A stretch of DNA of 64,000 nucleotides, taken from the NCBI GenBank assembly GCA_030603885.1, contig JAUVWW010000004.1, positions 2,236 to 66,235 on the forward strand. The letters run 5' to 3'. How positions within the stretch are numbered: the stretch's first letter is position 1; the number at the start of each line of letters is the position of its first letter. The translations under genes were made by a program, and so were the position numbers. The notes beneath the pieces were generated by a model. That model had not been told where the DNA came from. It did no database searches and worked only from the letters and a program-made list of their open reading frames with translations. This DNA comes from a bacterium. Lineage in GTDB: Bacteria; Patescibacteriota; JABMPQ01; JAUVWW01. This document shows positions 1,840 through 64,000 of this stretch, piece by piece.

Positions 1840-4035
1840 ATGTTTGCAGTACATAAACTTACCAAAATCAGAAAAAGAGATGGGAGGATAGTTGAGTTTG
1901 TTCAGAAGAAGATCGCTAATGCTATTTACAAAGCCATGGTGGAAGTAAAGAAGCCAAACCAGCGTCTGGCTCGGAGACTTTCTGATAAAGTAGTTACTTT
2001 ACTCGAAGAACGGCTAGCTAAAGATCAAATTCCAACTGTGGAAGAAGTCCAGGATATTGTAGAAGAAGCACTAATGAAGTCAGGACAGGTGGATGTGGCT
2101 CGAGCCTATATTGTTTATCGACAGAAGCATAAGGAAATCCGAGAGCTAAAAAAGAAAGTGCTCGAAGCAGAAAAGGAGTTTAAGCCAACCCCTGGAGCCT
2201 TAACTGTTCTTCAAAAAAGATATTTGAGGAAAGGAGTCAAGGGAGAAATTCTAGAGACTCCTACCCAGATGTTTAAGAGAGTAGCTCATAACATAGCTCA
2301 TGCTGATAATCTCTATAAGACCTTGTACCATCCAGAAATAGATGTGGAGAAAATCATCAAAGAATTTTATCGCATGATGGCTAATCTAGAGTTCCTTCCC
2401 AATTCTCCTACATTGATGAATGCGGGAAAAGAATTGCAGCAATTATCTGCTTGTTTTGTTCTCCCTGTTTCTGATTCTATTGAAGGAATTTTTGAAACTA
2501 TAAAAAATACAGCTATCATTCACCAATCAGGTGGTGGCACCGGATTTTCCTTTTCTCGACTCCGTCCCAAGGGAGATATTGTAAAATCAACAGGAGGAAT
2601 TGCCTCGGGACCAGTTTCTTTTATGAAAGTATTTAATGCGGCTACCGAGGCGATTAAACAGGGGGGCACGCGTCGGGGGGCCAATATGGCTATCCTACGT
2701 TGTGACCATCCAGACATTCTAGAGTTTATTACCTGCAAAGAAGAAGAAGGACAGCTAAATAATTTCAATATCTCTGTAGCTATGACTGATCGATTTATGC
2801 AAGCTTTGAAAAATGATACAGATTACGAATTGATCAGTCCCAGAACTAATGAAGCAGTGGGTAAGCTTTCTGCCAGAAAAGTATGGTCGCTAATATGCAT
2901 GATGACTTGGAAGAACGGAGATCCAGGAGCAGTATTTATAGATGTTATAAATAAAGATAACCCTACGCCGCATGTTGGAGAAATTGAGTCCACAAATCCA
3001 TGCGGCGAGCAACCTCTTTTACCCAACGAAAGTTGTAACCTTGGTTCTATCAATCTTTCCAAGATGGTAAAAACTAAAGGCAAAAAGGCAGAGATTGATT
3101 GGGATAGGCTGAAAAAGACCACATATACTGCTGTTCATTTTCTGGATAATGTTATTGATATGTGTAGATACCCTCTGTTAGAGATAGAGGAAATGGTGAC
3201 AGTCAATCGAAAGATCGGTCTGGGAGTAATGGGTTTTGCAGATATGTTAATCCAGCTTGGGATCCCCTATAGTTCAAAGAAAGCTTTAGCTTTAGGAGAG
3301 AAAGTGATGAAGTTTATTACAGAAGAGGGAAGAAAAGCATCAGTTGAGCTAGCAAAGATTAGAGGAGTCTTTCCTAATTTTGTAGATTCGGTTTGGGACA
3401 AGAAGGGGCTCAGAGTAAGGAATTCTACCATAACCACTATTGCTCCCACAGGTACTATTAGTATTATTGCAGGTTGTTCATCAGGTGTTGAGCCTCTATT
3501 TGCCATCTCGTTTATTAGACGCAATATTTTAGGAGGTGAGGCAGAAATTGTGGAAGTAAATCCTTTCTTTGAAAAGATAGCCCGTGAGCGAAAGTTTTAC
3601 TCAAAAGATTTAATGAGAGAGGTGGCAGAAAAAGGAAGTATTCAAAAAATAGAAAAGATTCCAGAGGATGTAAGAAAGCTATTTGTTACTGCTCTGGATA
3701 TTCCTTATGATATTCATGTCAAAATGCAAGCCGCCTGGCAGCGGTATACCGACAATGCCGTAAGCAAAACCATAAATATGCCTTATGAATCCACTGCCGA
3801 GGATGTAGAGAAAGCATATAAGTTAGCTTATGATTTAGGCTGTAAAGGGATAACCATTTATCGTTATGGATCACGCCAAGCCCAAGTCCTTTATTATGGA
3901 GGAAAAGAAAAAAGAAAATTGGAAAGAGGAGGACCTCAAAAATTAGAAAAATGTCCAGAATGTGGGGCTGATTTGACTTTTGAGGATGGATGCGCCGTGT
4001 GTAAGAATTGTGGCTATTCTTATTGTAAAGTCTAA
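1840..4035 (+). CDS. nrdJ: Class II adenosylcobalamin-dependent ribonucleotide reductase NrdJ, with an N-terminal ATP-cone and a C-terminal Cys4 zinc ribbon
   Basis: 731 aa. ATP-cone-like N-terminus ([21 protein letters not shown]). The RNR catalytic core carries the NPCGEQPL active-site Cys motif and a glycine-rich loop. C-terminus is CPECG...CKNCG. Confidence 0.85.
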
Positions 4036-6483: not shown

Positions 6484-7031
6484 AAAACAAACGTCCCTCG
6501 AAAGATCAATACTATTTAAATATTGCTAAGGAAATTGCTCGAAGATGTACTTGTTATAGGACCAATATAGGGGCTATTATTGTTCGGGATGATCAGATTA
6601 TTGCCACTGGCTACGTGGGAGCTCCTCGTAAGACAAAGGACTGTTTTGAGCATGGTTTTTGTCTGCGCACCAGATTGAAGATCCCTCATGGTCATAGGTA
6701 TGAACTTTGTCGAAGTATTCATTCGGAAATGAATGCTATTATCAATGCTGCTAGAGCTGGGGTGAGTCTTTTAGGTGGTAATATGTATATCTATGGAGAG
6801 CTGATGCCTAAAGGTAGAATCATGGACGCTACTCCTTGCTTTATCTGTAAGAAAATGATTATCAATGCTGGATTAAATCAAGTCATTGTATCAACTGCCA
6901 AAGGTAAAACGAAAAGACATAAAGTGTCTGATTGGATAAAAGATTGGAGAAAGAAAGACATTCTCGATGATAAACATCAGTATGGTGATGGCGTGAAGGT
7001 TTATTCTGAAAAAGCACTAAAAGAAAAATAA
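6480..7031 (+). CDS. dCMP deaminase (cytidine/deoxycytidylate deaminase zinc-binding family)
   Basis: HSEMNAI zinc-ligand motif plus PCFICKKMIINAG (PCxxC). Confidence 0.75.
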   Translation: MKNKRPSKDQYYLNIAKEIARRCTCYRTNIGAIIVRDDQIIATGYVGAPRKTKDCFEHGFCLRTRLKIPHGHRYELCRSIHSEMNAIINAARAGVSLLGGNMYIYGELMPKGRIMDATPCFICKKMIINAGLNQVIVSTAKGKTKRHKVSDWIKDWRKKDILDDKHQYGDGVKVYSEKALKEK

Positions 7032-13268: not shown

Positions 13269-13272
13269 GAAT

Positions 13273-13347
13273 CGGGGCGTAGCTTAGTTGGCTTAAAGCA
13301 CAGGGCTGGGGGTCCTGGGATCGCTGGTTCGAATCCAGTCGCCCCGA
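13273..13347 (+). tRNA. tRNA-Pro (anticodon GGG), no encoded CCA
   Basis: Acceptor stem CGGGGCG/CGCCCCG with discriminator A. D-arm GCTT-AGTTGGCTTA-AAGC. Anticodon loop CTGGGGG. T-arm GGTTCGAATCC. Confidence 0.8.
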
Positions 13348-13356
13348 TATAAAAAT

Positions 13357-15254: not shown

Positions 15255-15803
15255 ATGGTTACAATAAGACAATTAGTCCGCAAAGGACGAAAAAAATTTA
15301 AGAAAAAGTCTAAATCCCCAGCTTTATGGAGAGCTTTTAATGTTATTCAGGCAAGAACAAAAGAATATCCAAGTCCCTTTAAGAGAGGAGTCTGTATTAA
15401 AGTCACTACTACCACACCCAAAAAGCCAAATTCAGCCTTGCGTAAAATTGCCAAGGTAAGACTCTCTTCTGGCATGGAAGTTACAGCTTATATTCCCGGA
15501 GAAGGTCATAATTTACAGGAACACTCCATAGTCTTAATTCGAGGCGGAAGAGTAAAAGATCTTCCTGGAGTTAAGTATCATGTAGTCAGAGGAGTGCTGG
15601 ATACAGGAGGAGTGGTGGGAAGAAAGAAACAGCGTTCAAAATATGGAGCTAAAACAGAAGGTGCAGCTAAGAAAGAAGCTGCAGCAAAGGCAGAAGCTGC
15701 TCCAGAAGCAAAGGCCGGAGAAAAGCCTAAAGAAGAAACAGCTAAGGAGACCCCAACCAAGGAAGCTCCAGCTAAAGAAGCGCCTAAAGAAAAAAAGAAA
15801 TAG
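15255..15803 (+). CDS. rpsL: 30S ribosomal protein S12 with a ~45-aa A/K/E/P-rich C-terminal extension
   Basis: Canonical S12 core ([12 protein letters not shown]...GVKYHVVRG) followed by a low-complexity [16 protein letters not shown]...APKEKKK tail. Confidence 0.9.
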
Positions 15804-15847: not shown

Positions 15848-16318
15848 ATGACTAGAAAAAAACGAAAATTTAAGAAAAGAATCGAGCCAGATCCAAGATA
15901 CAGCAATGTTCTTGTGGCTAGATTTATTAATCAGATAATGAAGCGAGGAAAGAAAACTACGGCTCAAAGGGTAGTTTATGGCGCCTTTGATTTTATTAAA
16001 GAGAAGACTAAAAAGAATCCAATAGAGGTTTTTGATAAAGCTATAAAGAATGTTGGTCCACTTCTAGAAGTTAGAGGTAGAAGAATTGGAGGAGCTTCCT
16101 ATCAGATTCCTTATGAAGTGAGAGGAGAAAGACGCAATACTTTAGCTTTTAGATGGATTATCCAAGCAACTAAGGCTAGAAAAGGAAAACCCATGGCTCA
16201 AAAGCTAGCTTCAGAACTTCTAGATGCTTATCGAGGCGAAGGAGTAGCTGTTAAAAAGAAAGAAGATACTCATAGAATGGCAGAAGCTAATAAGGCATTT
16301 GCCCATTTTGCCATATAA
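15848..16318 (+). CDS. rpsG: 30S ribosomal protein S7
   Basis: S7 family similarity throughout ([20 protein letters not shown]...). Confidence 0.9.
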
Positions 16319-16367
16319 GAACCTGCTTTCTGAGAACCTTGATTCTTGCTTCGCTCGAATTAAACTA
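16318..16367 (+). repeat. Copy B of the ~50-nt intergenic repeat family
   Basis: TAAGAACCTGCTTTCTGAGAACCTTGATTCTTGCTTCGCTCGAATTAAACT. It starts on the rpsG stop codon and ends on the fusA ATG. Confidence 0.7.
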
Positions 16368-26697: not shown

Positions 26698-26754
26698 ATT
26701 TATACCTTATTAAAATAGAAGTTTTGTAAATTTACAAACGCATCTGAAAAAGTA

Positions 26755-27246
26755 TTACTTAATATTACAATGTTTTCTTAATAAAAACAACAGTTCTGGA
26801 TGGAATTTTTCACCTTTATTTATCATCTCTTGAATTTTATTTAAGCTAAAGAATTCTAGTCTTTCTACTTCTTTAGGATTTATTTTGAATGGACCATTAA
26901 ATACAGTTCTGAAAGTTGCTAAGAATTTTTTGAGACCTCTTTCATTCTCGTAGAGATCTTTATATTCAAAAGTTATTTCTGTTTGTATTCCAAGTTCTTC
27001 TTTAAATTCTCTTAAAGCTGCTTTTTTATAACTTTCTCCGGATAACACATGACCACCAACAGGGGTACTCCAATGGTGTGGGCAAAATGACTTATATTTA
27101 CTTCGTAATTGTAAGGCTATTTCACCCTTGTTATTGAAAATAAGAATATGGACTATTCTATGAGAGAGAAGTTTTTCATAAACTTCTTTTTGAGAAGCTT
27201 TGTCTATAACTTCATTGTGTTCATTTACTACATCTAAAAATTCCAT
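26755..27246 (-). CDS. NUDIX hydrolase (IPP-isomerase-like subfamily possible)
   Basis: Nudix box GGHVLSGESYKKAALREFKEELGI. Confidence 0.7.
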   Translation of the reverse strand: MEFLDVVNEHNEVIDKASQKEVYEKLLSHRIVHILIFNNKGEIALQLRSKYKSFCPHHWSTPVGGHVLSGESYKKAALREFKEELGIQTEITFEYKDLYENERGLKKFLATFRTVFNGPFKINPKEVERLEFFSLNKIQEMINKGEKFHPELLFLLRKHCNIK

Positions 27247-27356
27247 ACTAAAAATTATAAATCTTTAGCTTTTAAGATACCCTTGACAAGTCTATAAAAA
27301 TTTGTTAATATTTGGTATCACAGTGGGAATATAAAAAATTTGGAAAGGAGGGCAGA

Positions 27357-27641
27357 ATGATAGAAGCTAAGGACTTAAAAGGTAAAAAAATCTTGGGGGT
27401 TTTTATAGAGACAGAGCCCAATGATGACGAAACGACATTTCTTATAGTTGATACCTGTGGAGAATTTGGGCACTCTGAGAGAAAAGTGGCTGTCGATAAT
27501 GAAATAATCGAAAGAATAATCGTTAGTCTCGACCCAGGAGACCTTTTGCTAATTGTATTTGATGAAGTAGAGTCTTTGAGTTGGCCGAAAGCAAAAAAAA
27601 TATTCAAGTATGGTAGTCCTGAAGAAATTTACGGTGAGTGA
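27357..27641 (+). CDS. Hypothetical protein
   Basis: Start at MIEAKDL with a GGAGGG RBS. The composition is acidic/K-rich like a real protein, unlike the Ser-rich antisense ORF. No domain recognised. Confidence 0.35.
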   Translation: MIEAKDLKGKKILGVFIETEPNDDETTFLIVDTCGEFGHSERKVAVDNEIIERIIVSLDPGDLLLIVFDEVESLSWPKAKKIFKYGSPEEIYGE

Positions 27642-27794
27642 ACTTAAAAAGCTTACCTAGGGGTCGTCGGCTAAGTTGATGGCCTCTTTTTTAAAATGAG
27701 TTTGGAATTGCGCTTACAAGTATTATATACATTTGTTGTATTCAACCTTTATTTATACTATAATTTTAGCATAGACTTGAATTATAACAAAGTT

Positions 27795-29687: not shown

Positions 29688-30095
29688 ATGCCAAAGAAAC
29701 AGGTTAAAACTGTCCAAAAGGGCAAGCCCCAAACCAAGGCGGTTCGGGACAAGTCTAAAGATGTAAAAAAAGAAGAGGCTAAGAAGGAACAAATACAGCG
29801 AATTAGAATTAAAATTAAAGCCTACGACCATAAAGTTATTGATCAATCAGCAGCTCAGATAGTAGAGACAGCTAAGCGCACAGGAGCTCAAGTTTCAGGA
29901 CCTGTTCCTTTACCTACAGAAATACACAGAGAAACAGTGATTCGTTCTCCTTTTGTTCATAAAGATTCACGAGAGCAATACGAGATGAGAATTCATAAGA
30001 GGTTAATTGATATTCTGAAGCCTGCTTCAAAGACTATAGACTCTCTTATGAATCTGGACCTGCCCGCCGGAGTAGATGTGGAAATAAAAATGTAA
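29688..30095 (+). CDS. rpsJ: 30S ribosomal protein S10 with a K-rich N-terminal extension
   Basis: [39 protein letters not shown] core, and a ~35-aa lysine-rich N-terminus. Confidence 0.85.
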
Positions 30096-30220
30096 TTTTC
30101 ACCTAAATTCTTGTTTTAAAATTTAATGTTTTTAATTAATAACCCAATCTAATAATATCTAAAATTAGATAGCCAGACAGGATTTTAGTGGCTCATGAAT
30201 GTCTGCTGCTAAAATCTTTT

Positions 30221-30266
30221 TATTTCGAGCGAAGCGAGAATCAAGGTTCTCGCGAGAGAGGTTCTT
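30221..30266 (-). repeat. Copy C of the ~50-nt intergenic repeat family (reverse orientation)
   Basis: Reverse complement is AAGAACCTCTCTCGCGAGAACCTTGATTCTCGCTTCGCTCGAAATA. It ends 6 nt before the rplC ATG. Confidence 0.7.
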
Positions 30267-30272
30267 ATTTAT

Positions 30273-30884
30273 ATGAAATTCATCCTTGGCAAGAAAATTG
30301 GAATGACCCAGACTTTTAAAAAAGGTAAAGTAATACCTGTAACAATATTAGAGGCTGGATTATGTGTGGTTACTCAGCTTAAAACAAAAGAGAAGGATGG
30401 ATATGATGCAGTTCAAGTAGGATTCGGCAAGACAGAACCTAGAAAACTAACCAAGCCCGAAAGAGAGCGTCTCAAAGCTTTAGGATATTTTAGATATCTT
30501 TGTGAATTTAGGATAGACAAGCCAGAAGAGTATAAAAAAGGACAGACTATTGATGTTTCTGTATTTAAAGAAGGAGATAAAGTAAAAGTATCTGGGATAT
30601 CAAAAGGTAAAGGATTTGCCGGGGTGGTGAAGAAATTTGGATTTAAAGGTTCTCCAGCTACCCATGGTACAAAACATACCTTAAGAGCTGGAGGATCAAT
30701 TGGAGCTGGTTTTCCAGAGCACGTATTTAAAGGAATGAAAATGCCAGGGAGAATGGGAGGAAAAAGGAGAACTGTTAGGGGTTTAGAAGTGATTAGTGTA
30801 GATAAGGAAAAGAATATACTGGCGGTTAAAGGAGCTGTACCTGGACCTCGAAGAGGCTTGGTTGAAGTGAGGAGTGAGAAATAA
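30273..30884 (+). CDS. rplC: 50S ribosomal protein L3
   Basis: L3 family similarity (KGKGFAGVVKKFGFKG...). Confidence 0.9.
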   Translation: MKFILGKKIGMTQTFKKGKVIPVTILEAGLCVVTQLKTKEKDGYDAVQVGFGKTEPRKLTKPERERLKALGYFRYLCEFRIDKPEEYKKGQTIDVSVFKEGDKVKVSGISKGKGFAGVVKKFGFKGSPATHGTKHTLRAGGSIGAGFPEHVFKGMKMPGRMGGKRRTVRGLEVISVDKEKNILAVKGAVPGPRRGLVEVRSEK

Positions 30885-55723: not shown

Positions 55724-55815
55724 GTTCTTATTTATAATTTTGTCTCAACCACATCAAAACAAAAAAATAATTGCAAATTTAAAGAGCCATAATCTAAATC
55801 TATGTATAGTCTAGG

Positions 55816-56388
55816 TTATGACTCTTTGTTACTAAGAAAACTGTGTTTTAGAACCTCAAAACCCACAATCTTATCACCTTCTACGTAAAATTCTATACCC
55901 TCGCATGGTTTAAGTCTGCCTCCGATTTCCCCAAGATCAAAATTTTTCTTGAGTATCTTAATAGCTGGGATAAGAGCTCCACCGTGAGAGACAACTAAAA
56001 CCCTTTCGCCATCGGAAATTGTATTTGCTACTCTTTTTATAGTTCGAATTACGCGAAGACCAGTATTTTTTATCATCCTTTGCAGTCTAGGATCAACAAT
56101 CTCGAGAAATGCCCCAAACTCACCATATTTATGTTCCAGTTTCTTAGCCTGTGGTTTCCAAAGATCCTTTTCATCTGGAAGAGTATTAAATCCTTCATCA
56201 ATTTCATACTTTGGAAAACCAAAATATTCCATGGTCTTAAAACAGCGAGGGGGCTCAGCACAAATGTGAGCTGCATATTTATTCTGTTTCAAAATTCTGC
56301 GTATCTGCTTAGCCAATTTAATTCCCTTTGGGGGTATATTGCCTTTTTTGTCTTTTATAGTGTGTATTCTGACTTCTATTATTTTCAT
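55816..56388 (-). CDS. Histidine phosphatase (phosphoglycerate-mutase-like) family protein
   Basis: VVSHGGAL motif and overall size. The N-terminal RHG motif is degenerate (RIHT). Confidence 0.55.
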   Translation of the reverse strand: MKIIEVRIHTIKDKKGNIPPKGIKLAKQIRRILKQNKYAAHICAEPPRCFKTMEYFGFPKYEIDEGFNTLPDEKDLWKPQAKKLEHKYGEFGAFLEIVDPRLQRMIKNTGLRVIRTIKRVANTISDGERVLVVSHGGALIPAIKILKKNFDLGEIGGRLKPCEGIEFYVEGDKIVGFEVLKHSFLSNKES

Positions 56389-56457
56389 ATTTCCTCCTTT
56401 GAAATTAGATAAAAAAATGCTATAATATTGTTATCAGTTTAGCCGAAAAATAAAGTT

Positions 56458-57519
56458 ATGTCAAATTCTATTTTAGTCATCAATTCAGGATCAACCTCAT
56501 TAAAGTATAAGCTTTTTAATGCTAAGAATTTCCGAGAGCTTAAGTCTGGGTATATTCAGGATATTGGAACTAGCAAAGTTAAGAATCACGAGCAAGCCCT
56601 GAAGATAGCCTTAAAAGAAATTGATGATTTAGAAAATATTAAGGCCGTAGGTCATCGGATAGTTCATGGTGGAGAAGAGTTTGTTCAGCCTACTTTGATT
56701 ACTAAATCCGTTTTAAGAAGACTGGCAAAATATAATAAACTAGCACCTTTGCATAACCCTGCCAATTTAATGGGTATAAAGGCTTGTCTTAAGCTTTTGC
56801 CTAAGATTCCTAATCTAACTGTTTTTGATACTTCTTTTCATCAGACTATTCCCAAGAAAGCCTATCTTTATGCTTTGCCTTTAAAATATTACAAAAAATA
56901 CAGAATTAGGCGTTATGGATTTCATGGAATCTCCCACCAGTATGTAGCAGAAGAAGCAGCTAAAAAGCTAAAAAAACCTTTAGATAAGCTAAAAATCATT
57001 ACTTGTCATCTTGGCGGAGGATGTTCAATTACTGCTATCGATAAGGGAAAATCAGTTGATACTTCCATGGGATTTACTCCAGCCGAAGGCCTGGTAATGA
57101 TGACTAGATCTGGGGATATTGATCCAGCTATTATTTTATTTTTACAGAGGGAACTTAGACTTGATCCAGATCAGATAGATAAGATTATTAATTTTCAAAG
57201 TGGAATGTTAGGACTTTGTGGAGAAGAGAACATGCTTAAAGTACTCGATAAAATTAAGCGAGGAAATAAATTAGCTAAGCTTGCTTTTGATATTTTTGTT
57301 TATCGGATTCAAAAATATATCGGAGCATATTATGCTGCCTTGGGTGGCCTAGATGCTCTGGTTTTTACTGGAGCCATTGGAGCAGGAAAACCCAAGACTA
57401 GAAATGCCATATCTCAAGGAATAAAACATATTCTTAGAAGAGTCAAAGTCTTGGCTATTTCTACGGACGAAGAGTTAATGATTGCTAGAGAAACTCTCAA
57501 AGTAATTCAAAATCTATAA
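56458..57519 (+). CDS. ackA: Acetate kinase
   Basis: ILVINSGSTSLKYKLF N-terminal signature. The ASKHA-fold motifs run throughout. Confidence 0.9.
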   Translation: MSNSILVINSGSTSLKYKLFNAKNFRELKSGYIQDIGTSKVKNHEQALKIALKEIDDLENIKAVGHRIVHGGEEFVQPTLITKSVLRRLAKYNKLAPLHNPANLMGIKACLKLLPKIPNLTVFDTSFHQTIPKKAYLYALPLKYYKKYRIRRYGFHGISHQYVAEEAAKKLKKPLDKLKIITCHLGGGCSITAIDKGKSVDTSMGFTPAEGLVMMTRSGDIDPAIILFLQRELRLDPDQIDKIINFQSGMLGLCGEENMLKVLDKIKRGNKLAKLAFDIFVYRIQKYIGAYYAALGGLDALVFTGAIGAGKPKTRNAISQGIKHILRRVKVLAISTDEELMIARETLKVIQNL

Positions 57520-57523
57520 AAAT

Positions 57524-58426
57524 ATGATAGATCAAATTATCGGCGTTGACCTCGGTGCCACAAAAATTGCCACAGGATTAGTTAACCAAAAAGGTAAAGT
57601 GGTAAAGAAAGTAAAAATTGCTACAGAGGCAGAAAAGGGAATTGATAAAGTGGTAGAAAATGTAGTTTTTTCCATTGAGCAAGTTGCGCCTGAGAAAGTT
57701 AGTAAAATTGGTTTAGCTTGCGCTGGACAAATAGATATTAAAAAGGGAGTTATAGTTTATTCTCCCAATTTAAAATGGAAAAGAATTCCTTTGGTTAGAT
57801 TAGTCTCTCAAAAGATTGAAAAAGAGCTAGCCTGGGAAGATTTTAAAATCTTTATTGATAATGATGCTAATTGTTTTGCTTTAGCTGAAGCCATATACGG
57901 AGTAGCTAGAGGGAAAAAATATGTAGTAGGGCTGACTTTGGGAACTGGTATTGGCTCTGGCATTGTCATAAATAAAAAAATCTATCATGGTCAGACCTTT
58001 GCCTCAGAAGCTGGACACATGATTGTTGAGCCAGAAGGAAGAGAATGTGCCTGTGGAAGAAAAGGACACCTTGAAGCTTATGCTTCAGGAGGAGCTATAG
58101 AAAGAAAATACAAAGAACTAACTGGCCGAAAAAAGATCGCTACTGATATAGAGATTGAAGCTTTGCAAAACAAGGAATCAGAAGCCTTTCAAATCTATCA
58201 AGAAGCAGGAAAATATTTAGGAATAGGCCTGGCTAATATAGCTAGTATCTTAGATCCAGAGATAATCGTTTTAGGCGGGGGATTAGCCAGATCAGATTTA
58301 CTTATTGATAAAGCTAAAGTTGAGTTTGAAAAAGAGATATTTTTTAGAGACAAAGCTACAAAAATAATAAAAACAAAACTAGGAGATGATGCTGGAATTA
58401 TCGGAGCAGCCTGTATTGCGAAGTAA
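57524..58426 (+). CDS. ROK-family glucokinase
   Basis: IGVDLGATKIATGLV, and a zinc motif CACGRKGHLEAY. Confidence 0.8.
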   Translation: MIDQIIGVDLGATKIATGLVNQKGKVVKKVKIATEAEKGIDKVVENVVFSIEQVAPEKVSKIGLACAGQIDIKKGVIVYSPNLKWKRIPLVRLVSQKIEKELAWEDFKIFIDNDANCFALAEAIYGVARGKKYVVGLTLGTGIGSGIVINKKIYHGQTFASEAGHMIVEPEGRECACGRKGHLEAYASGGAIERKYKELTGRKKIATDIEIEALQNKESEAFQIYQEAGKYLGIGLANIASILDPEIIVLGGGLARSDLLIDKAKVEFEKEIFFRDKATKIIKTKLGDDAGIIGAACIAK

Positions 58427-58491
58427 GAATTGTATTTTGCTTAAAAATTTGAAACATAGTAAAATAAAGGCATAATTAGCCTTTATTTTTT

Positions 58492-60189
58492 ATGACTAAA
58501 CGTTGGGAGATTGCCAAATCAGCGTCCAAAGATTTCATCAAAAAATTTCCAGAATTTTCTCCTTTGGTTTTGCAACTTTTGTATAATCGTGGACTGACTA
58601 CTCAAACTCAAATCGATGAGTTTTTTAATCCAGACTATGAAAGTGATCTTCATGATCCTTTTTTGTTTTCAGACATGGAAGAAGCAGTTGTTCGTATCTT
58701 AAAAGCGGCTAAAAATAAGGAAAAAGTGGCTGTTTATGGAGATTATGATGCTGATGGAGTCACAGCTACAGTACTTCTGGTTGAACTTTTAAAAAAGCTG
58801 GGTATCTCAGGACAAGTTTATATTCCAGATCGAAGAAAAGAAGGATATGGACTAAATAAAAAATCCATTGAGTGGTTATCTTTAAAAAAAGTAAGTTTGA
58901 TTGTCACTTGTGATTGTGGAGTAAGCAATTATAAAGAAGTAGAATATGCCAAAGCTAAAGGAATAGATACGGTTATTTGTGATCATCATCACATAGCCCA
59001 TAAGTTACCCAAAGCCTACGCAGTTATTTGTGCTAAGAAAAAAGAGGATAAATATCCATATAAAGAATTAACCGGAGTAGGAGTAGCCTTTAAATTAGCC
59101 CAAGCTATTCAATCGAAGCCAGAGGCCGGATTAGAATCTGGATTTGAAAAATGGTTTTTGGATCTGGTCTGCTTGGGAACCATAGCTGATATTGCTCCTC
59201 TTTTAGGAGAAAATAGAACTTTAGTAAAATATGGACTTTCCATCTTAGAAAAAACTCAACGCCTGGGTCTTGTAGCTTTAATAAAGATGGCTGGCATAAA
59301 TTCAGAGAAACTAAATACTCATTCAGTTGGATATTTGTTAGTGCCTAAGCTAAATGCGGCGGGAAGAATGAATCATGCTAATAATGCTTATAAGTTAATT
59401 GTGGCAGGGACAGAAGCTGAAGCTAAAAAATATGCTAGACAACTTGAGAAAGCAAATAGAGAGAGACAAAAGATTCAAGGAAAAATCTTTGAAGAAGTTA
59501 AAGATAGAGTAAAAGATGTTAAAGAAAAAGGAATTATTTTTGAAGCAGACGCTAGTTGGCCAGCTGGGATAGTAGGTATTGTAGCTTCAAAATTAGTTGA
59601 GGAATACTCACGGCCTATACTGCTTATGGAGAAGGATAAAGAAGAAAGTACTGGCTCTGCGAGAAGTATTTCGGGTTTCAATATCATTGAAGCCATAACT
59701 CAGTGTTCTGATATTCTTTTAGAATATGGAGGCCACTCTATGGCAGCTGGATTTACTTTGGAAAATAAAAATTTAGAGGAGTTTAAAAAACGACTTGAAG
59801 ATTTGGCTAAAAAAAAGCTAAAAGATGAGGACTTAATACCCAGTGTCAGAATAGATGTTGAGATTACACCAAAAGAGATTAATTGGGAATTATATGAACA
59901 AATAGAAAAATTTGCTCCTTTTGGTGGAGGAAATGAAGAGCCAGTATTTTCCTTGAAAGAAATGAAAATTGTTGATGTGCTTGGGGTAGGGTTTCAGCAA
60001 AAGCATCTTAAACTAAAATTGGCTGACACAGAAAATAGAGTTTGGCAAGCTATTGGCTTTAATTTTGGTGAATGGAAAGATAAGCTTAAAATAGGAGATT
60101 TAGTAGATATAGCTTTTGAGCTAGAGGAGCATGAGTGGAATGGAAAAAGGGAATTAGAGTTGAAACTTGTTGATCTAAAATTAGGCTAG
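58492..60189 (+). CDS. recJ: Single-stranded-DNA-specific exonuclease RecJ
   Basis: DHH motifs (VAVYGDYDADGVTAT ... DHH), then DHHA1 and OB-fold regions. Confidence 0.85.
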   Translation: MTKRWEIAKSASKDFIKKFPEFSPLVLQLLYNRGLTTQTQIDEFFNPDYESDLHDPFLFSDMEEAVVRILKAAKNKEKVAVYGDYDADGVTATVLLVELLKKLGISGQVYIPDRRKEGYGLNKKSIEWLSLKKVSLIVTCDCGVSNYKEVEYAKAKGIDTVICDHHHIAHKLPKAYAVICAKKKEDKYPYKELTGVGVAFKLAQAIQSKPEAGLESGFEKWFLDLVCLGTIADIAPLLGENRTLVKYGLSILEKTQRLGLVALIKMAGINSEKLNTHSVGYLLVPKLNAAGRMNHANNAYKLIVAGTEAEAKKYARQLEKANRERQKIQGKIFEEVKDRVKDVKEKGIIFEADASWPAGIVGIVASKLVEEYSRPILLMEKDKEESTGSARSISGFNIIEAITQCSDILLEYGGHSMAAGFTLENKNLEEFKKRLEDLAKKKLKDEDLIPSVRIDVEITPKEINWELYEQIEKFAPFGGGNEEPVFSLKEMKIVDVLGVGFQQKHLKLKLADTENRVWQAIGFNFGEWKDKLKIGDLVDIAFELEEHEWNGKRELELKLVDLKLG

Positions 60190-60626
60190 TGCTACGCAAA
60201 TCCATGAAATACAATAAACTTACAATTTATACCGATGGTGGAGCAAGAGGTAATCCTGGTCCAGCTGGGATGGCAGTGGTTATCTACGATGAGAATGGCA
60301 AATTAATAGGCCAACACTCAAAGTTCATTGGCAGAGCCACCAATAACCAAGCAGAATACAAAGCTTTAATTTTTGGTTTAGAAAAAGCTAAAAATTTAAG
60401 GGCTAAAGAAGCAAGATGTTTTTTAGATTCAGAGCTTATAGCTAGACAGCTTACTGGACAATATCGAGTAAAGGATAAGGATTTAAAGCCTCTTTTTGCA
60501 AAAATATTACAATTGACAAATAATTTTGATTCTGTAACCTTTAGACATATTTCGAGAGAGGAGAATAAATTGGCAGACAAATTGGTAAATTTGGCTATAA
60601 ATAAAGGAATAATCGATAAAGGTTGA
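60189..60626 (+). CDS. rnhA: Ribonuclease HI
   Basis: IYTDGGARGNPGPAG and NNQAEY...; the DEDD catalytic pattern. Confidence 0.85.
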   Translation: MLRKSMKYNKLTIYTDGGARGNPGPAGMAVVIYDENGKLIGQHSKFIGRATNNQAEYKALIFGLEKAKNLRAKEARCFLDSELIARQLTGQYRVKDKDLKPLFAKILQLTNNFDSVTFRHISREENKLADKLVNLAINKGIIDKG

Positions 60627-60654
60627 CTTTTTTTCTAGTTTTGTTATACTTGAA

Positions 60655-61037
60655 TGAGCCCAAGTGGACTAGATGATCGCCCCCGCGTAATGGGGGGAGG
60701 AAAGTCCGAACACCCTTTGTTCTTCATGGCAAACCATTAGCGAACAAAGAAGTGGGTGCTGGGTAATTCCCAGCGGTCCTGCAGTAATGTAGGGTTAGGG
60801 AAAGTGCCACAGAGACTATACTAGCTTATAGCTCGTAGCTTTAGGCAAAAGGTGAAAAGTATGAGGATGTATCTCGAGATGCTACCTCGTTTCCTCCCGG
60901 GTGACTGGGATGGATGGCAAACCCCACCTGGTGCAAGACCAAACAATGGTTGGTTGCTTGACCCCTCAAGTAATCGAGGGGCTAGATAGATGATCATCTG
61001 AAAAAACAGAATTCGGCTTATGGTCCACTTGGGCCCT
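60655..61037 (+). ncRNA. rnpB: RNase P RNA (bacterial type), not in the ORF track
   Basis: P1 pairing gcccaagtggac (60658-60669) with gtccacttgggc (61023-61034). Conserved GGAAAGTCCG (60698-60707), AGGGAAAGTGCCACAGAG (~60798-60815), and ACAGAATTCGGCTTATGGTC near the 3' end, which matches E. coli ACAGAACCCGGCUUAUCGGUC. The region is a GC-rich island. Confidence 0.8.
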
Positions 61038-61051
61038 AAATAAATTAATAC

Positions 61052-62437
61052 ATGAAAAGATCGGAATTAATCTTTACTGCCCTTCTTGTACCTTTGGACT
61101 TTTTTATGGTACTGCTATCTAGTGTCCTTGCCTACTGGATTCGTTTTCATCCAAGAATTCAAGCTATTCGTCCTATAATATTTAAGCTTCCTTTTCAAGA
61201 ATATATAGTTTTTGTTTTAGCCATTGTCCCTTTTTGGCTTTTGATTTTTGCTATATCTGGTCTTTACAATATTAAAAGAAGAAAGAGATTTATAGATGAA
61301 TTTACTCGAGTTTTCGTTGCTGCCTCTGCTTCCATGTCAGCTGTTATCATCTTTGCTTTCTTTATCAGACAGCTTTTCGAATCCAGATTTATAGTTCTTG
61401 TAGTTTGGTTTTTTAGTATTATTTTGGTAACATTAGGAAGATTTAGTATAGATTCTGTCCGAAGATGGCTCTTTAGATATGGATATGGAATACACCGGTT
61501 AGTGGTAGTAGGTGATACTTTAGAAGCTCGGCGGCTTGTGCATGCTATTAAGACTAATCCAAGAGTTGGCTATCAAGTGGTAGGGAAAATACCAGGTATT
61601 AATGGTGAGGCATGGGAGGAGTTAGAAAAGATAAATCAAAAACCAGGCATAGACGAGATCATGCAGTGTGATCCAACTTTGTCTAAAGAGAAGGTCCTAG
61701 ATTTAATAGATTTTTGTCACGAAAGAAAACTTGACTTTATGTATGCTCCAGATCTTTTTGGATGTGAAGCCACTAATATAGATGTAAGAACCTTAGCTGG
61801 TGTTCCCTTAGTTGAGTTAAGACGAACTCCTCTGGAGGGATGGGGGAGGATAATAAAAAGAACTGTCGATGTAATAGGAGCAATTTTAGGTCTTATTTTA
61901 CTTTTTCCTTTATTTTTAATAGTAGCTTTAGTTATAAAGATTGACTCAGAAGGTCCTATATTTGTAAAACTAACTAGAGTAGGCTATACTGGAGAATTCC
62001 CTCTTTTGAAGTTTCGATCTATGGTCAAAAATGCTCATGCTTTAAAGAAGAAGTTGTTGAAACTTTCAGAAAGGAAAGGTCCTTTATTTAAGATGAAGTC
62101 TGATCCTAGAATTACAAGATCTGGAAGATGGCTTAGAAAGACTCGAATTGATGAACTTCCACAGCTTTTCAATGTTCTTGTAGGCCAAATGTCGCTGGTA
62201 GGCCCAAGGCCCCATGAGCCAGAGGAAGTAGCCCAATATAAAAAGCATCATAAGAAAGTTTTAGCTATCAATCCAGGAATGACAGGCATGGCTCAAGTTT
62301 CAGGTGCTGCTGGTCTAGATTTCGAAGACGAAGTAAAACTAGATACCTATTATATTGAGAATTGGTCCTTGAAGTTAGATTTTACCATTTTACTTAGAAC
62401 CTTAGGGGTGGTACTAATTGGCAGAGGAGCCATATAA
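61052..62437 (+). CDS. Polyprenyl-phosphate glycosyl-1-phosphate transferase (bacterial sugar transferase, WbaP/EpsL-like priming enzyme)
   Basis: N-terminal TM helices, and a C-terminal catalytic domain with LLKFRSM and GPRPHEPEE motifs. Confidence 0.8.
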   Translation: MKRSELIFTALLVPLDFFMVLLSSVLAYWIRFHPRIQAIRPIIFKLPFQEYIVFVLAIVPFWLLIFAISGLYNIKRRKRFIDEFTRVFVAASASMSAVIIFAFFIRQLFESRFIVLVVWFFSIILVTLGRFSIDSVRRWLFRYGYGIHRLVVVGDTLEARRLVHAIKTNPRVGYQVVGKIPGINGEAWEELEKINQKPGIDEIMQCDPTLSKEKVLDLIDFCHERKLDFMYAPDLFGCEATNIDVRTLAGVPLVELRRTPLEGWGRIIKRTVDVIGAILGLILLFPLFLIVALVIKIDSEGPIFVKLTRVGYTGEFPLLKFRSMVKNAHALKKKLLKLSERKGPLFKMKSDPRITRSGRWLRKTRIDELPQLFNVLVGQMSLVGPRPHEPEEVAQYKKHHKKVLAINPGMTGMAQVSGAAGLDFEDEVKLDTYYIENWSLKLDFTILLRTLGVVLIGRGAI

Positions 62438-62482
62438 CTAACTCGTTAAGCCTTTTAAGCTTGAACAGCTTAATTAGTTAAC

Positions 62483-63598
62483 ATGAAGGTAGCATTAGTT
62501 CACGATTTTCTAAATCAGGTGGGAGGGGCAGAAAAAGTGCTTCAAGTTTTTCATGAAATTTTTCCTAAAGCACCTGTTTTTACAGTTGTTTATGATCCGG
62601 AAGAAACAAGGGGTGAATTTGACGATTTAGATATTCGTACTACATTTATTCAAGGAATACCTTTTGGAGTAAAAAGATACAAGTGGTTTTTATCTTGGAT
62701 GCCGGCAGCTATAGAACGTTTTGATTTTTCAAAATATGATTTAGTTTTATCTGACAGTACAGCCTTTGCTAAAGGAATTATCACTAGACCAGAAACTTTA
62801 CATATTTCTTATTGTCATACCCCCACTCGTTATTTATGGAGTGATACCTACTCTTATACAGCGGAACTAAAGCAGCCTAAGATTATAAAAAGTTTTTTAC
62901 CTTTTGTTCTAAATAGAATTAGACTATGGGATAGACTAGCAGCAGATAGAGTAGATAAATTTATTGCTAATAGCCATTTCGTTCGTGAGCGAATTAAGAA
63001 ATATTATGGACGGGAAAGTACAGTCATATACCCCCCAGTAGAAGCCAGAAAGATCCCTTTTTCTAATCCTCAAAAGGTAGAGAATTATTATCTAATAGTA
63101 TCGAGACTCCGACCTTATAAAAGAGTTGATCTGGCTATTGATGCTTTTAATGCTTTAGGTATACCATTGAAAGTAGTAGGCATAGGGGAAGAATATCTAA
63201 AATTAAAGAATATAGCCAAGAAAAATATCGAATTTTTAGGCTCTGTCTCAGATAAAGAAAGAAATAAACTACTTAGCTCATGTATTGCCTTTATTCACCC
63301 TCAGGAGGAAGATTTTGGAATTTCAGCAGTAGAAGCTATGGCTGCAGGTCGGCCTGTTATTGCTTACAAAAGTGGAGGAGCACTAGAGACTGTCAAGAAA
63401 GGGGAAACCGGAGAATTTTTTGAAGATCAAACGCCTTGGTGTTTAGTAGACGCAGTCAGAGAATTCATGCCAGAAAAGTACGACCCCAAGGTTATTAGGA
63501 AACAAGCTTTACAATTTGACACCTCTATCTTTAAAAGGGAAATTAAAGATTTTATAGAGAAAGCCTATAAAGAACATAAAAACAATTTAACAATATAA
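62483..63598 (+). CDS. GT4-family glycosyltransferase
   Basis: MKVALVHDFLNQVGGAEKV at the N-terminus, and the C-terminal E-x7-E region (EDFGISAVEAMAAGRPVIA). Confidence 0.8.
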   Translation: MKVALVHDFLNQVGGAEKVLQVFHEIFPKAPVFTVVYDPEETRGEFDDLDIRTTFIQGIPFGVKRYKWFLSWMPAAIERFDFSKYDLVLSDSTAFAKGIITRPETLHISYCHTPTRYLWSDTYSYTAELKQPKIIKSFLPFVLNRIRLWDRLAADRVDKFIANSHFVRERIKKYYGRESTVIYPPVEARKIPFSNPQKVENYYLIVSRLRPYKRVDLAIDAFNALGIPLKVVGIGEEYLKLKNIAKKNIEFLGSVSDKERNKLLSSCIAFIHPQEEDFGISAVEAMAAGRPVIAYKSGGALETVKKGETGEFFEDQTPWCLVDAVREFMPEKYDPKVIRKQALQFDTSIFKREIKDFIEKAYKEHKNNLTI

Positions 63599-63651
63599 GA
63601 ACCTCTCGCTTCGCTCAAGAACCTTGTTATTCACTTCGTTCATAATAACAA
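63598..63651 (+). repeat. Copy D of the ~50-nt intergenic repeat family (more diverged)
   Basis: TAAGAACCTCTCGCTTCGCTCAAGAACCTTGTTATTCACTTCGTTCATAATAACA. It starts on the GT4 stop codon and lies just upstream of the next gene. Confidence 0.6.
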
Positions 63652-63659
63652 ATAAAGCC

Positions 63660-64000
63660 ATGTCTCCAAAAAACTATCTAAAAGTAATATCAGATCATAA
63701 AGTAGTCGTCATAGTCTGTGTGATATTAGTTGGTCTTCTTGCTTTTATTTTTGCCATGCTTGTACCTAAAAGCTATGATGCCATTCTTACTTTATCAGTT
63801 CATAGAATAAATAGAGAGGAAACAGAAGATTTTCAATACGATAATTATTATGCTATTCAGGCAGCAGAACTTCTGACAGACACCATGGTAAATTGGCTAG
63901 CTACTCCGGATGTAGCCGTAGTCATCTATAATAAGGCAGGGATAACACCTGATGTTGAAGATCTTACCAAGCTATCTAAAAAATTTAGAGCTAGACAACT
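63660..64000 (+). CDS. Wzz/polysaccharide-chain-length-determinant-like protein, N-terminal part (runs off the window end)
   Basis: Short cytoplasmic N-terminus, a TM helix (VVVIVCVILVGLLAFIFAML), then a periplasmic region typical of PCP/Wzz proteins. Its position in a glycan cluster fits. Confidence 0.5.
   Translation, partial: MSPKNYLKVISDHKVVVIVCVILVGLLAFIFAMLVPKSYDAILTLSVHRINREETEDFQYDNYYAIQAAELLTDTMVNWLATPDVAVVIYNKAGITPDVEDLTKLSKKFRARQ

Follow-up and report, generated by a model that had tools for sequence, protein, structure and literature searches.

Element M, a probable selfish mobile element of 42–57 nucleotides in Patescibacteria and gut Clostridia

Introduction

What is a sequence of about 50 nucleotides (nt) that recurs four times among unrelated genes of one bacterium, and why does it tend to stand between the stop codon of one gene and the start codon of the next? 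This question is raised by a 64,000-nt stretch of a Patescibacteria genome (contig JAUVWW010000004.1 of assembly GCA_030603885.1, positions 2,236 to 66,235; in the following the window), which holds four copies, A to D, of a repeat that is here called element M. A preliminary description had offered three readings for it, i.e., a regulatory RNA structure, an operator bound by a regulatory protein, or a selfish element similar to repetitive extragenic palindromic (REP) sequences or to miniature inverted-repeat transposable elements (MITE). Of these the selfish reading is right, given that orthologous sites are empty in relatives, that relatives carry M at different sites, and that copies occur in both orientations and in frame within genes; regulatory RNA and operator are not supported as general explanations. 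M is a non-autonomous insertion with defined junctions, it was gained and lost recently, and its stems are kept by compensatory change. Taken together, the four repeats are very probably copies of one family of 42–57-nt non-autonomous selfish mobile elements that would be moved as a folded single strand. The copies in the window are passengers, and the stop codons of rpsG and of a GT4 glycosyltransferase gene are target TAAs of such insertions.

Four copies of element M in the window

The covariance model R1, which was built solely on M copies of other genomes and on none of the window, retrieved four copies in the window with filters off (52.5–73.9 bits, E = 1e-16 to 4e-11), the next match having E = 1.5. 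An nhmmer profile made from the four window copies gave the same picture (E = 6.5e-16 to 2.2e-12; next match in the window E = 2.6), and a 28-nt core of M had 3 matches in the window with 0.00 expected by shuffling. The four copies of about 50 nt are thus real, they lie within 3 nt of the positions given before, and the flanking genes are those named in the preliminary description (open reading frames (ORFs), Pfam). In the alignment of the four copies all share ATAAGAACC, a short variable segment, AGAACCTTG, N4-TYRCTTCGYTC-N4 and TAA, so that the consensus reported earlier and its repeated AGAACC are borne out.

Copy B (16315–16363, forward strand; cmsearch 52.5 bits, E = 4.1e-11) lies between rpsG and fusA and is composed of ATAA (16315–16318) followed by 45 inserted nt (16319–16363). 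The TAA at 16316–16318 is the stop codon of rpsG (ORF 15848–16318, Ribosomal_S7 in Pfam) and at the same time the left junction and target triplet of the copy. It is followed further downstream by the invariant linker AGAACCTTG (16333–16341), whose AACCUUG is 99–100% conserved across the family by column conservation, by the hairpin P2, ATTC-TTGCTTCGCTC-GAAT (16342–16360, from the model alignment), whose pairs covary in the family, and by a terminal TAA (16361–16363), which repeats the target TAA when filled and empty sites are compared and whose three bases U-A-A are 94/93/76% conserved. The copy ends 3 nt upstream of the fusA ATG at 16367. Copy D (63595–63648, forward strand; 73.9 bits) is built in the same way, with 50 inserted nt (63599–63648) between the GT4 glycosyltransferase gene (62483–63598) and a Wzz-like gene. 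The GT4 stop codon TAA (63596–63598) is its left junction and target triplet (ORF list, Pfam; a blastn comparison in which the TAA of the relative L201 aligns to both sides of the insertion), and the copy stands 11 nt upstream of the Wzz-like ATG, which is located at 63660 and not at 63651. The observation that the TAA starting copies B and D is the stop codon of the upstream gene therefore stands.

Copy C is inverted (30220–30268, reverse strand; 59.9 bits), lies between rpsJ (29688–30095) and rplC (30273–30884) and is 4 nt upstream of the rplC ATG at 30273. Copy A (1729–1780 including the left ATAA, forward strand; found by cmsearch with 61.9 bits, E = 1.6e-13, and by nhmmer) lies between ftsZ (384–1493) and a gene for a class II-like ribonucleotide reductase (RNR; 1840–4035, Pfam). 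It is 59 nt upstream of the RNR gene, and a hairpin CCGCAC...GTGCGG plus the T-run TTTTATTT (about 1787–1827, read from the sequence) intervenes. The position directly before a start codon, ascribed earlier to every copy, hence applies to B, D and the inverted C but not to A. The segment 1637–1827, composed of a promoter-like site, about 60 nt, copy A and the hairpin plus T-run, might correspond to a small transcript or might serve the RNR gene as an attenuator-type leader; a 26-codon ORF (ATG at 1710 to TAA at about 1790) reads through copy A.

A family with two covarying hairpins

In a scan of 185,579 species genomes with the 24-nt pattern AGAACCTTGNTNNTYRCTTCGYTC, at least 115 genome stretches match, whereas by our own arithmetic only about 2 would be expected by chance, given the size of the collection. 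Stretches taken from other genomes or metagenomes for comparison are given L-numbers. Three of the matches (L013, L034 and L079) are without the rest of the motif and look like chance matches, and the remaining ones come from Patescibacteria (Saccharibacteria, Nealson-, Parcu-, Pacei- and Shapirobacteria, single-cell genomes) and from gut and rumen Clostridia (Acutalibacteraceae, Ruminococcaceae, Oscillospiraceae). With model R1, 126 matches were obtained in 100 loci.

The unit of 42–57 nt has the form AUAAGAAC-(variable hairpin P1)-AACCUUG-(P2: NNNN-UC-RC-UUC-GY-UC-NNNN)-UAA. P1 is a hairpin of free sequence and length between two GAAC, closed by CU...AG, which may expand to more than 100 nt with nested hairpins; it is degenerate in the window copies B, C and D, and in copy D it is similar to P2 (CUCGCUUCGCUCA). 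P2 consists of four covarying outer pairs, a UC/UC internal loop, an R-Y and a C-G pair and a UUC loop, and is followed by UAA. Its outer pairs change jointly, as in TTAT/ATAA, TTAC/GTAA, ATTC/GAAT, TTGT/ACAA and others. Across the R1 alignment 95.0% of the paired cells hold a pair, vs 75.7% in column shuffles and 28–51% with the partners slid; compensatory changes occur in 11 of the 13 pairs, with 217 double-change cells vs 59 in shuffles, and the unpaired positions are 93–100% conserved. The hairpin GAGAA...TTCTC proposed before is not the conserved one, as the covariation supports P1, between the two GAAC, and P2 (NNNN-UCRCUUCGYUC-NNNN) in its place. In one subfamily (AAGAACUU...CAAAACC) the C-G pair closing P1 is replaced by U-A, extending P1 into the 'direct repeat'. 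Watson-Crick pairs number 1132, vs 15 wobble pairs when the forward and 23 when the reverse strand is read; a call of the acting strand from wobble pairs was dropped, these two counts being uninformative. The loops are mostly UNC, i.e., GNA on the opposite strand, and in 98 of 104 distinct copies the better fold is that of the reverse complement. A hammerhead-like CUGAUGA in copy A was set aside, as it occurs neither in B, C and D nor in the family.

This structure bears on the idea that M is a double-stranded DNA operator whose direct repeat AGAACC-N-AGAACC binds a regulator coordinating unrelated operons. The two direct half-sites and the near-invariant sequence are what such a site might look like. 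However, the spacing of the half-sites ranges from about 8 to more than 100 nt, it is complementarity and not sequence that is conserved between them, copies are found inside genes, downstream of genes and in arrays of as many as 4 tandem units, and genomes that are nearly identical differ in whether a copy is there, so that an operator is hardly conceivable. A sigma-70 promoter (TTGATT-16-TAAANN) was likewise rejected, because its -10 element would overlap the fusA ATG in copy B and its spacing is not conserved in the family.

M appears to be undescribed; the preliminary description had not recognized it either. Against Rfam 15 the segment 16290–16390 gives no match at E ≤ 10, a 4-unit M array in L057 gives chance-level matches only, and literature searches with the sequence and with keywords returned no description. 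Across the whole window only RNase P and tRNA exceed the Rfam 15 gathering threshold; these are an RNase P RNA of class A (60661–61035, 166 bits) and a tRNA-Pro(GGG) (13272–13348), which are also the sole Rfam/ARAGORN matches.

Recent gain and loss between close relatives

Closer relatives of the window were located via protein searches. The search of related genomes proposed earlier yields copies of M at other sites, while the orthologous sites of B, C and D are empty in close relatives. At site B, L196 (elongation factor G 92% identical in amino acids (aa), about 85% in nt) has an rpsG-fusA gap of 3 nt and reads GCA ATT TGA ACC ATG, where the window reads GCC ATA TAA (45 nt) ACT ATG; removal of the 45 nt restores colinearity with L196. 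S7 ends in ...AHFAI in the window lineage and in L196, and in ...AHFAW or ...AHYRW in more distant relatives (L116–L149).

At site D, L201 is 97.2% identical to window positions 56470–64000 (7.5 kb), and the sole gap (63599–63645, an insertion of 50 nt) is copy D. The TAA of L201 aligns to both flanks of the copy (blastn), the empty site reading ACAATTTAA/CAAATAAAGCCATG and the filled site ACAATATAA (GAACC...CATAATAA) CAAATAAAGCCATG, where the slash marks the insertion point. The site is also empty in the outgroups L202 and L203 (about 80% identity), and L204 (92.3% identical) carries copy D with one substitution. Copy D thus either predates the split of the window and L204 lineages and was cleanly lost in L201, or the alleles were swapped by recombination. 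A second strain-level indel against L201, unrelated to M, replaces about 700 nt of the window (55766–56469) by 2.9 kb (L201 182–3081) coding for CbiQ, an ABC ATPase, an ECF transporter component and a riboflavin-kinase-type regulator. The filled sites B and D both read ATA TAA and the empty ones ATT TGA (B, L196) and ATT TAA (D, L201), a T/A difference 4 nt before the insertion point.

Site C is empty in L198, L199 and L205 (93–95% nt identity) and in L200, reading ...ATAAATAA/AAAGATT in the orientation of the element. Alongside copy C there is a separate 18-nt indel, bounded by ATTTAT repeats, at which the stretch is deleted in the window. This locus bears on the view that M is selfish in origin but that some copies were co-opted, i.e., C as ribosome-binding stretch of rplC, A as part of a small transcript or leader, and stop-adjacent copies as REP-like elements tuning the stability of the upstream mRNA. 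The rplC leader of the relatives has a purine-rich AGAGAAAGAAA (L198 4195–4213) that is deleted in the window (30252–30272), and the degenerate P1 of copy C reads GAGAGAGG on the forward strand, 12 nt before the rplC ATG and thus at a similar distance. For copy A, the promoter-like TTGACA-17-TAGACT (1637–1665) upstream and the hairpin plus T-run just after it point in the same direction, and effects of REP and SMAG sequences on the stability of upstream transcripts are documented (PMC3184786). However, a promoter scan found fewer sites than in shuffles and the account of copy C rests on a single comparison; co-option is quite unlikely overall. Within the selfish reading itself, copy C may secondarily give rplC a purine-rich ribosome-binding stretch.

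Other sites differ as well. L198 and L205 carry two tandem M copies beside a radical-SAM gene where the window has none, and L202 carries one M copy that is not in the window. M has therefore been gained and cleanly lost between genomes that are 92–97% identical. In the window the region 26705–27758 (about 1 kb, with a NUDIX gene at 26755–27246 on the reverse strand and unassigned ORFs) is replaced in L198 and L205 by 167 nt that hold both tandem copies (L198 1558–1724), i.e., M lies at the junction of this indel. The ORFs of S12 (15255–15803, 182 aa) and S10 (29688–30095, 135 aa) are long, with the Pfam match starting from residue 40, and have either N-terminal extensions of about 35–40 aa or start codons that were placed too far upstream; the called genes of L198 and L199 give S10 an identical length.

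Target site, tandem arrays and copies inside genes

In all four pairs of filled and empty sites the insertion lies directly 3' of ATAA, TTAA or TTGA, the TTGA being that of the distant relative of site B. M enters directly after an (A/T)TAA that is already there, and since its own last three nt are TAA, this triplet is found on both flanks. This TAA on both sides can be read as a 3-nt duplication or as part of the element; the duplications at the tRNA loci described below are 16–81 nt long. An IS91-like target GTTC/CTTG was discarded, as these tetranucleotides lie inside M and the empty sites are without them.

The insertion 3' of (A/T)TAA together with the terminal TAA explains why copies in compact operons start on a stop codon and end before a start codon. 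Where a genome is compact and AT-rich, most TAA sites at which an insertion does no harm are stop codons a few bases before the next start, and this accounts for the positions in which M is seen. Similarly, since the end of M recreates the target TAA, units accumulate in head-to-tail arrays of up to 4. Some arrays have units with different P1 and others have identical units, which is explained by independent hits in the former and by local duplication in the latter. Two other explanations of the arrays were considered and rejected: an array similar to ToxI of type III toxin-antitoxin systems, as the arrays lie between housekeeping genes (in L057 a YjeF-like and a short-chain dehydrogenase-like gene) and most copies are single, whereas ToxI repeats stand directly before a ToxN-type toxin gene, and a CRISPR array, in which unique, non-palindromic spacers of about 30–40 nt would be expected, as the variable part P1 is itself a hairpin of 6–20 nt and is identical between units in several arrays.

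Moreover, M occurs inside coding sequences, which is the outcome that the preliminary description had tied to a simple selfish repeat. In L202 a GT4 glycosyltransferase gene carries a copy where the orthologous site in L201 is empty (TTAAAATATAA/GAATG); the filled gene is 51 nt longer, and the protein gains 17 aa, KNLMLSHQNLVTRSARN, which are not present in two orthologues. A search for ORFs spanning M revealed further cases in L029 (a NifS/IscS-like enzyme), L077, L050, L090 and L111 (three tandem units). As an example, the acetyl-CoA synthetase of L090 aligns to PDB 9g79_B over 25–444 and 480–617, the 35-aa insert between these parts being two inverted units. All six in-gene cases have units of 45–57 nt, a length divisible by 3 and a stop-free frame, for which the chance is about 1 in 700 (1/3 to the sixth power, our arithmetic), and intergenic units measure 42, 44, 45, 46, 48, 50, 52 nt and others. 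Because of these lengths and stop-free frames the in-gene copies are best understood as being translated and filtered by selection and not as being spliced. M hence survives only where it is harmless, i.e., after stop codons in tight operons, in spacers by terminators or tRNA genes, and inside genes if its length is a multiple of 3 and its frame has no stop.

Orientation and neighbours of M

The neighbours of M are unrelated, ordinary housekeeping genes. Copies of M point either way, occupy all types of intergenic position, among them sites downstream of genes, and also lie inside coding sequences. In L002 and L071, M pairs of inverted orientation enclose a transporter gene and a phosphoribosyl-pyrophosphate-synthetase-like gene. 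An autonomous parent of M was sought and dropped from consideration, since no gene lies between M halves, the inverted pairs flank ordinary genes and tblastn detected no Y1 transposase in the M-bearing loci.

In the Patescibacteria group, 17 arrays are co-oriented with both neighbours, 4 are opposite to both and 5 are antisense inside ORFs, and in no fewer than 11 arrays the TAA of M doubles as the stop codon of the gene before it. For Clostridia there is no orientation rule. The Patescibacteria counts would suit a cis-acting RNA in operon transcripts, either a processing or stability signal or a device coupling termination at UAA to reinitiation, in which case the position between stop and start would be functional: the 17 same/same arrays contrast with 4 opposite/opposite ones, M shares its TAA with the upstream stop in the 11 or more arrays mentioned, the starts 3' of B (3 nt) and D (11 nt) are without Shine-Dalgarno sequence, and the stems covary. 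However, the same junctions work without M in relatives that are 85–97% identical, with spacers of 3 nt and 11 nt, and M is present in 0 of 80 rpsG loci of more distant relatives (metagenomes, S7 identity 53–68%). Furthermore, the five additional Patescibacteria-group copies are antisense inside ORFs, the in-gene copies are translated and not removed, as their lengths divisible by 3 and stop-free frames indicate, the Clostridial copies follow no orientation rule, wobble pairs are nearly absent and the window copies fold weakly. A cis-acting RNA is therefore very improbable. The absence from all 80 rpsG loci of these S7 relatives, together with the fact that the genes flanking M are unrelated between loci, speaks against the regulatory and the operator reading alike. 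An rRNA-type boxA on the reverse strand (GGUUCUU) was rejected separately, as this is the wrong strand for most Patescibacteria copies.

Comparison with known systems

M shares properties with several families of short repeats and fails defining features of Rickettsia palindromic elements (RPE), of the REP system with its associated transposase (RAYT) and of IS200/IS605 alike. Closest in behavior, and in behavior only, are the RPE, short palindromic selfish repeats that are intergenic or lie in frame in unrelated housekeeping genes, where they add a conserved peptide, and that have no adjacent transposase (PMC10969869; PMC3184786). M is also both intergenic and in frame within genes and has no transposase beside it. 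Unlike M, RPE are about 105–150 bp long and are restricted to Rickettsia, whereas M measures 42–57 nt, has another sequence, occurs in Patescibacteria and Oscillospirales Clostridia, and has a defined TAA junction and head-to-tail arrays. That the host of the window copies belongs to Patescibacteria and not to Rickettsia agrees with the relatives of its elongation factor G and GT4 proteins, which are named Patescibacteria or Parcubacteria.

REP, BIME and SMAG sequences are tens of nt in length, have a G+C-rich hairpin after a short conserved single-stranded tag, are clustered and often lie just past stop codons, and are presumed to be handled as single strand by the HUH-type RAYT (PMC3184786). 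M belongs to the same size class and follows the same hairpin-plus-tag design. However, it has AAGAAC and AACCUUG (consensus AUAAGAAC) in place of the GTAG/GGAG tag, it has two unlike hairpins, its arrays are direct and not inverted doublets, and with six in-frame in-gene copies it is not strictly extragenic. Moreover, no RAYT was found near any M copy, and while REP sequences are specific to a species, the sequence of M hardly changes from one phylum to another.

Compared with MITEs such as Correia/NEMIS, ERIC, RUP and BOX, M is likewise non-autonomous, multi-copy and mostly intergenic, lying in operons and occasionally in genes. MITEs, by contrast, have terminal inverted repeats and usually measure 100–400 bp, whereas the termini of M (GAACCU... 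and ...NNNNUAA) are not inverted repeats. MITEs also have target-site duplications of fixed length, and the TAA on both sides of M may or may not be one of 3 nt. IS200/IS605 elements and their non-autonomous derivatives, the palindrome-associated transposable elements (PATE), have no terminal inverted repeats, carry subterminal hairpins, insert 3' of a fixed tetranucleotide without staggered-cut duplication and leave precise presence/absence patterns. M resembles them in being without terminal inverted repeats (GAACCU... and ...UAA), in having hairpins P1 and P2 at both ends, as judged from covariation, and in inserting 3' of ATAA, TTAA or TTGA with precise junctions in the four filled/empty pairs. 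It differs in that PATEs are hundreds of bp long with two alike end hairpins, whereas P1 of M is free to vary; a subset of copies, among them window copy D and those of L022, L033, L045 and L111, does have a P1 that resembles P2, and a full-length partner is not present in the loci examined. Furthermore, no TnpA or TnpB was seen with M, no orientation bias with local GC skew is apparent, and long flank duplications occur at some loci.

Gut-1 RNA arrays and tRNA-gene fragments in Clostridia

Gut-1 RNA (RF01706) is a family of tandem small hairpins with UUCG-like loops and conserved A/U-rich linkers that was found in gut metagenomes and has no known function (Weinberg et al., 2010, PMC2864571). 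Its linkers are (G)UGAUAU/UGAAAU, vs AAGAAC/AACCUUG in M, it is filed as small RNA (sRNA) gene, and the window copies do not match RF01706 even at E = 10. In the Clostridial locus L038 the order is Gut-1 (forward, 6574–6656), M (6650–6701), Gut-1 (reverse, 6725–6799), a terminator and a tRNA gene. The Gut-1 units score 61.0 and 52.6 bits, the third Gut-1 hairpin has the P2 core of M, and the whole resembles an inverted-repeat unit bounded by CAATGATAT...ATATCATTG. In L073 (1478–1936) and five other loci M lies in a multi-copy unit of roughly 460 nt closed by AAAAGCCACAAC...GTTGTGGCTTTTTT, with Gut-1 matches near the threshold (47 and 40 bits in L073, where Gut-1 and M are arranged as in L038; family threshold 50 bits). 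Gut-1 may accordingly belong to a modular system of hairpin repeats and not be a stand-alone sRNA gene, and M is a neighbour or relative of Gut-1 and not a member. Gut-1-type hairpin arrays with M in gut and rumen Clostridia also include L010 4700–4900 and L017 6200–6460.

Moreover, M lies in Clostridia within truncated copies of tRNA genes, i.e., in the D-arm of tRNA-Arg(CCU), at position 9 of tRNA-Pro and in the T-arm of tRNA-Gln, with an intact tRNA gene adjoining. Such fragments with flank duplications of 16–81 nt are found in L112 (1660–1895), L059 (434–760, reverse strand), L064 (1–330, reverse strand), L005 (5563–5790), L065 (3641–3870), L043 (6480–6654), L072 (3420–3790, reverse strand) and L076 (1447–1720). 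None of the models tested explains these duplications around M. A tRNA intron was rejected: among the arrays read, a tRNA spanning the junction was restored by in silico removal of M in a single case, other tRNAs lie beside arrays, intact tRNAs adjoin in native loci, and the in-gene copies obey frame and length rules.

How M might be moved

The movement of M as a folded single strand is suggested by several properties. M has no terminal inverted repeats, a duplex of 45–57 bp is too short and stiff for synapsis of both ends, and the stems are kept by compensatory change; in addition wobble pairs are scarce, the loops are GNA/UNC triloops with a tandem G.A or U.C loop, features of stable DNA mini-hairpins, and the insertion is similar to that of IS200/IS605, where it occurs 3' of a fixed tetranucleotide with precise presence and absence. 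An enzyme acting in trans would recognize both the sequence and the hairpin of M, AACCUUG plus P2 perhaps serving as recognition module and TAA as cleavage and target site. The best guess for this enzyme would be an HUH-type single-strand transposase, like TnpA of IS200/IS605 or the REP-associated transposase, and by this analogy the mobilization of M by an HUH-type enzyme in trans is a tentative proposal that is more doubtful than probable.

Several results weigh against single-strand transposition of this kind. Regarding the enzyme, no transposase-like domain is present in ten small or unassigned ORFs of the window, tblastn with IS608/IS200 TnpA queries gave 0 matches in about 1.1 Mb of M-bearing loci, and no gene flanked by split M ends was seen in the loci examined. 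M was found in 0 of 2.9 million viral contigs (IMG/VR), 50,697 phage records (INPHARED) and 72,556 plasmids (PLSDB), so that no vector is suggested. Regarding the substrate, P1, the would-be 'left-end hairpin', is not conserved in sequence, unlike the ends of IS200/IS605, the window copies have no folding advantage over shuffled sequence (z = -1.5 to +0.5), and for a transposase substrate it is unusual that the unpaired bases should be nearly identical in Patescibacteria from groundwater and in Clostridia from the gut. Orientation vs local GC skew is 16:16 in Patescibacteria and 16:30 in Clostridia, the 8-kb skew being a poor proxy for replication direction. Finally, the polarity at site D is ambiguous between ancestral gain with clean loss and allele exchange, and the Clostridial copies in tRNA-gene fragments with their 16–81-nt duplications are not predicted by HUH peel-and-paste.

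Alternatively, M might be mobile but copied in by a nick-primed or template-switching step of a DNA polymerase or reverse transcriptase and not by transposase cut-and-paste. The 3' end ...TAA would anneal to the TAA by a donor copy, M would be copied, and synthesis would return to the target via microhomology; an exact return would give a clean insertion, a return upstream a flank duplication and a return downstream an adjacent deletion. In line with this, TAA or ATAA stands at both junctions in the 4 filled/empty pairs, and the outcomes vary, being clean at B, D and L202 and accompanied beside copy C by the 18-nt deletion bounded by ATTTAT repeats. Moreover, the flank duplications of 16–81 nt end exactly at M, as in L076 with X(81)-M-X(81) and a GGATTC microhomology, an intact gene copy is kept beside each tRNA-Arg, tRNA-Pro and tRNA-Gln fragment, and the bases downstream of M are enriched for G-A-A, resembling the start of M itself. 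The copying model fits the variable junctions, the 18-nt deletion and the Clostridial tRNA duplications better than the HUH step does. However, microhomology alone cannot explain about 30 unpaired bases that are more than 93% identical across phyla, for which sequence recognition is needed; many of the duplicated tRNA-Arg loci are orthologous and represent few independent events, about 4–5; and no reverse transcriptase gene was seen beside the copies, where no systematic search for one was made. We consider copying instead of transposition improbable. In a further variant, an enzyme that is conserved and perhaps encoded by the host would recognize a two-hairpin single strand of about 50 nt, and a nick-primed reaction akin to target priming, of a kind not yet described for bacteria, would copy this strand into TAA sites. 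Such a reaction may leave 'duplications' of 3 nt, of 16–81 nt or of negative length; this variant is quite unlikely.

Significance

Genomes of Patescibacteria are streamlined, with a size of about 1 Mb, and are regarded as holding little mobile DNA. That M, at about 50 nt, was gained and lost between genomes of 92–97% identity and lies in the rpsG-fusA and rpsJ-rplC junctions and in frame in enzymes shows that these genomes are actively invaded. M is a ready-made strain marker and, at the same time, a source of annotation errors, i.e., false small ORFs, shifted stops and unexplained inserts of 15–19 aa (peptides YKNL..QNLVTRFARNK or YFERSENQGS..GSY). The near-invariant sequence in two distant lineages, with no plasmid, phage or transposase attached, turns the recognizing enzyme into a testable question. 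Furthermore, it is suggested that the Rfam family Gut-1, an orphan sRNA for 15 years, belongs to a modular hairpin-repeat system. If the nick-primed reaction were true, no active mobile element smaller than M would be known, the reason why M is nearly identical in Patescibacteria and Clostridia would be clear, and the Gut-1 'sRNA' would be recast as part of the same repeat system.

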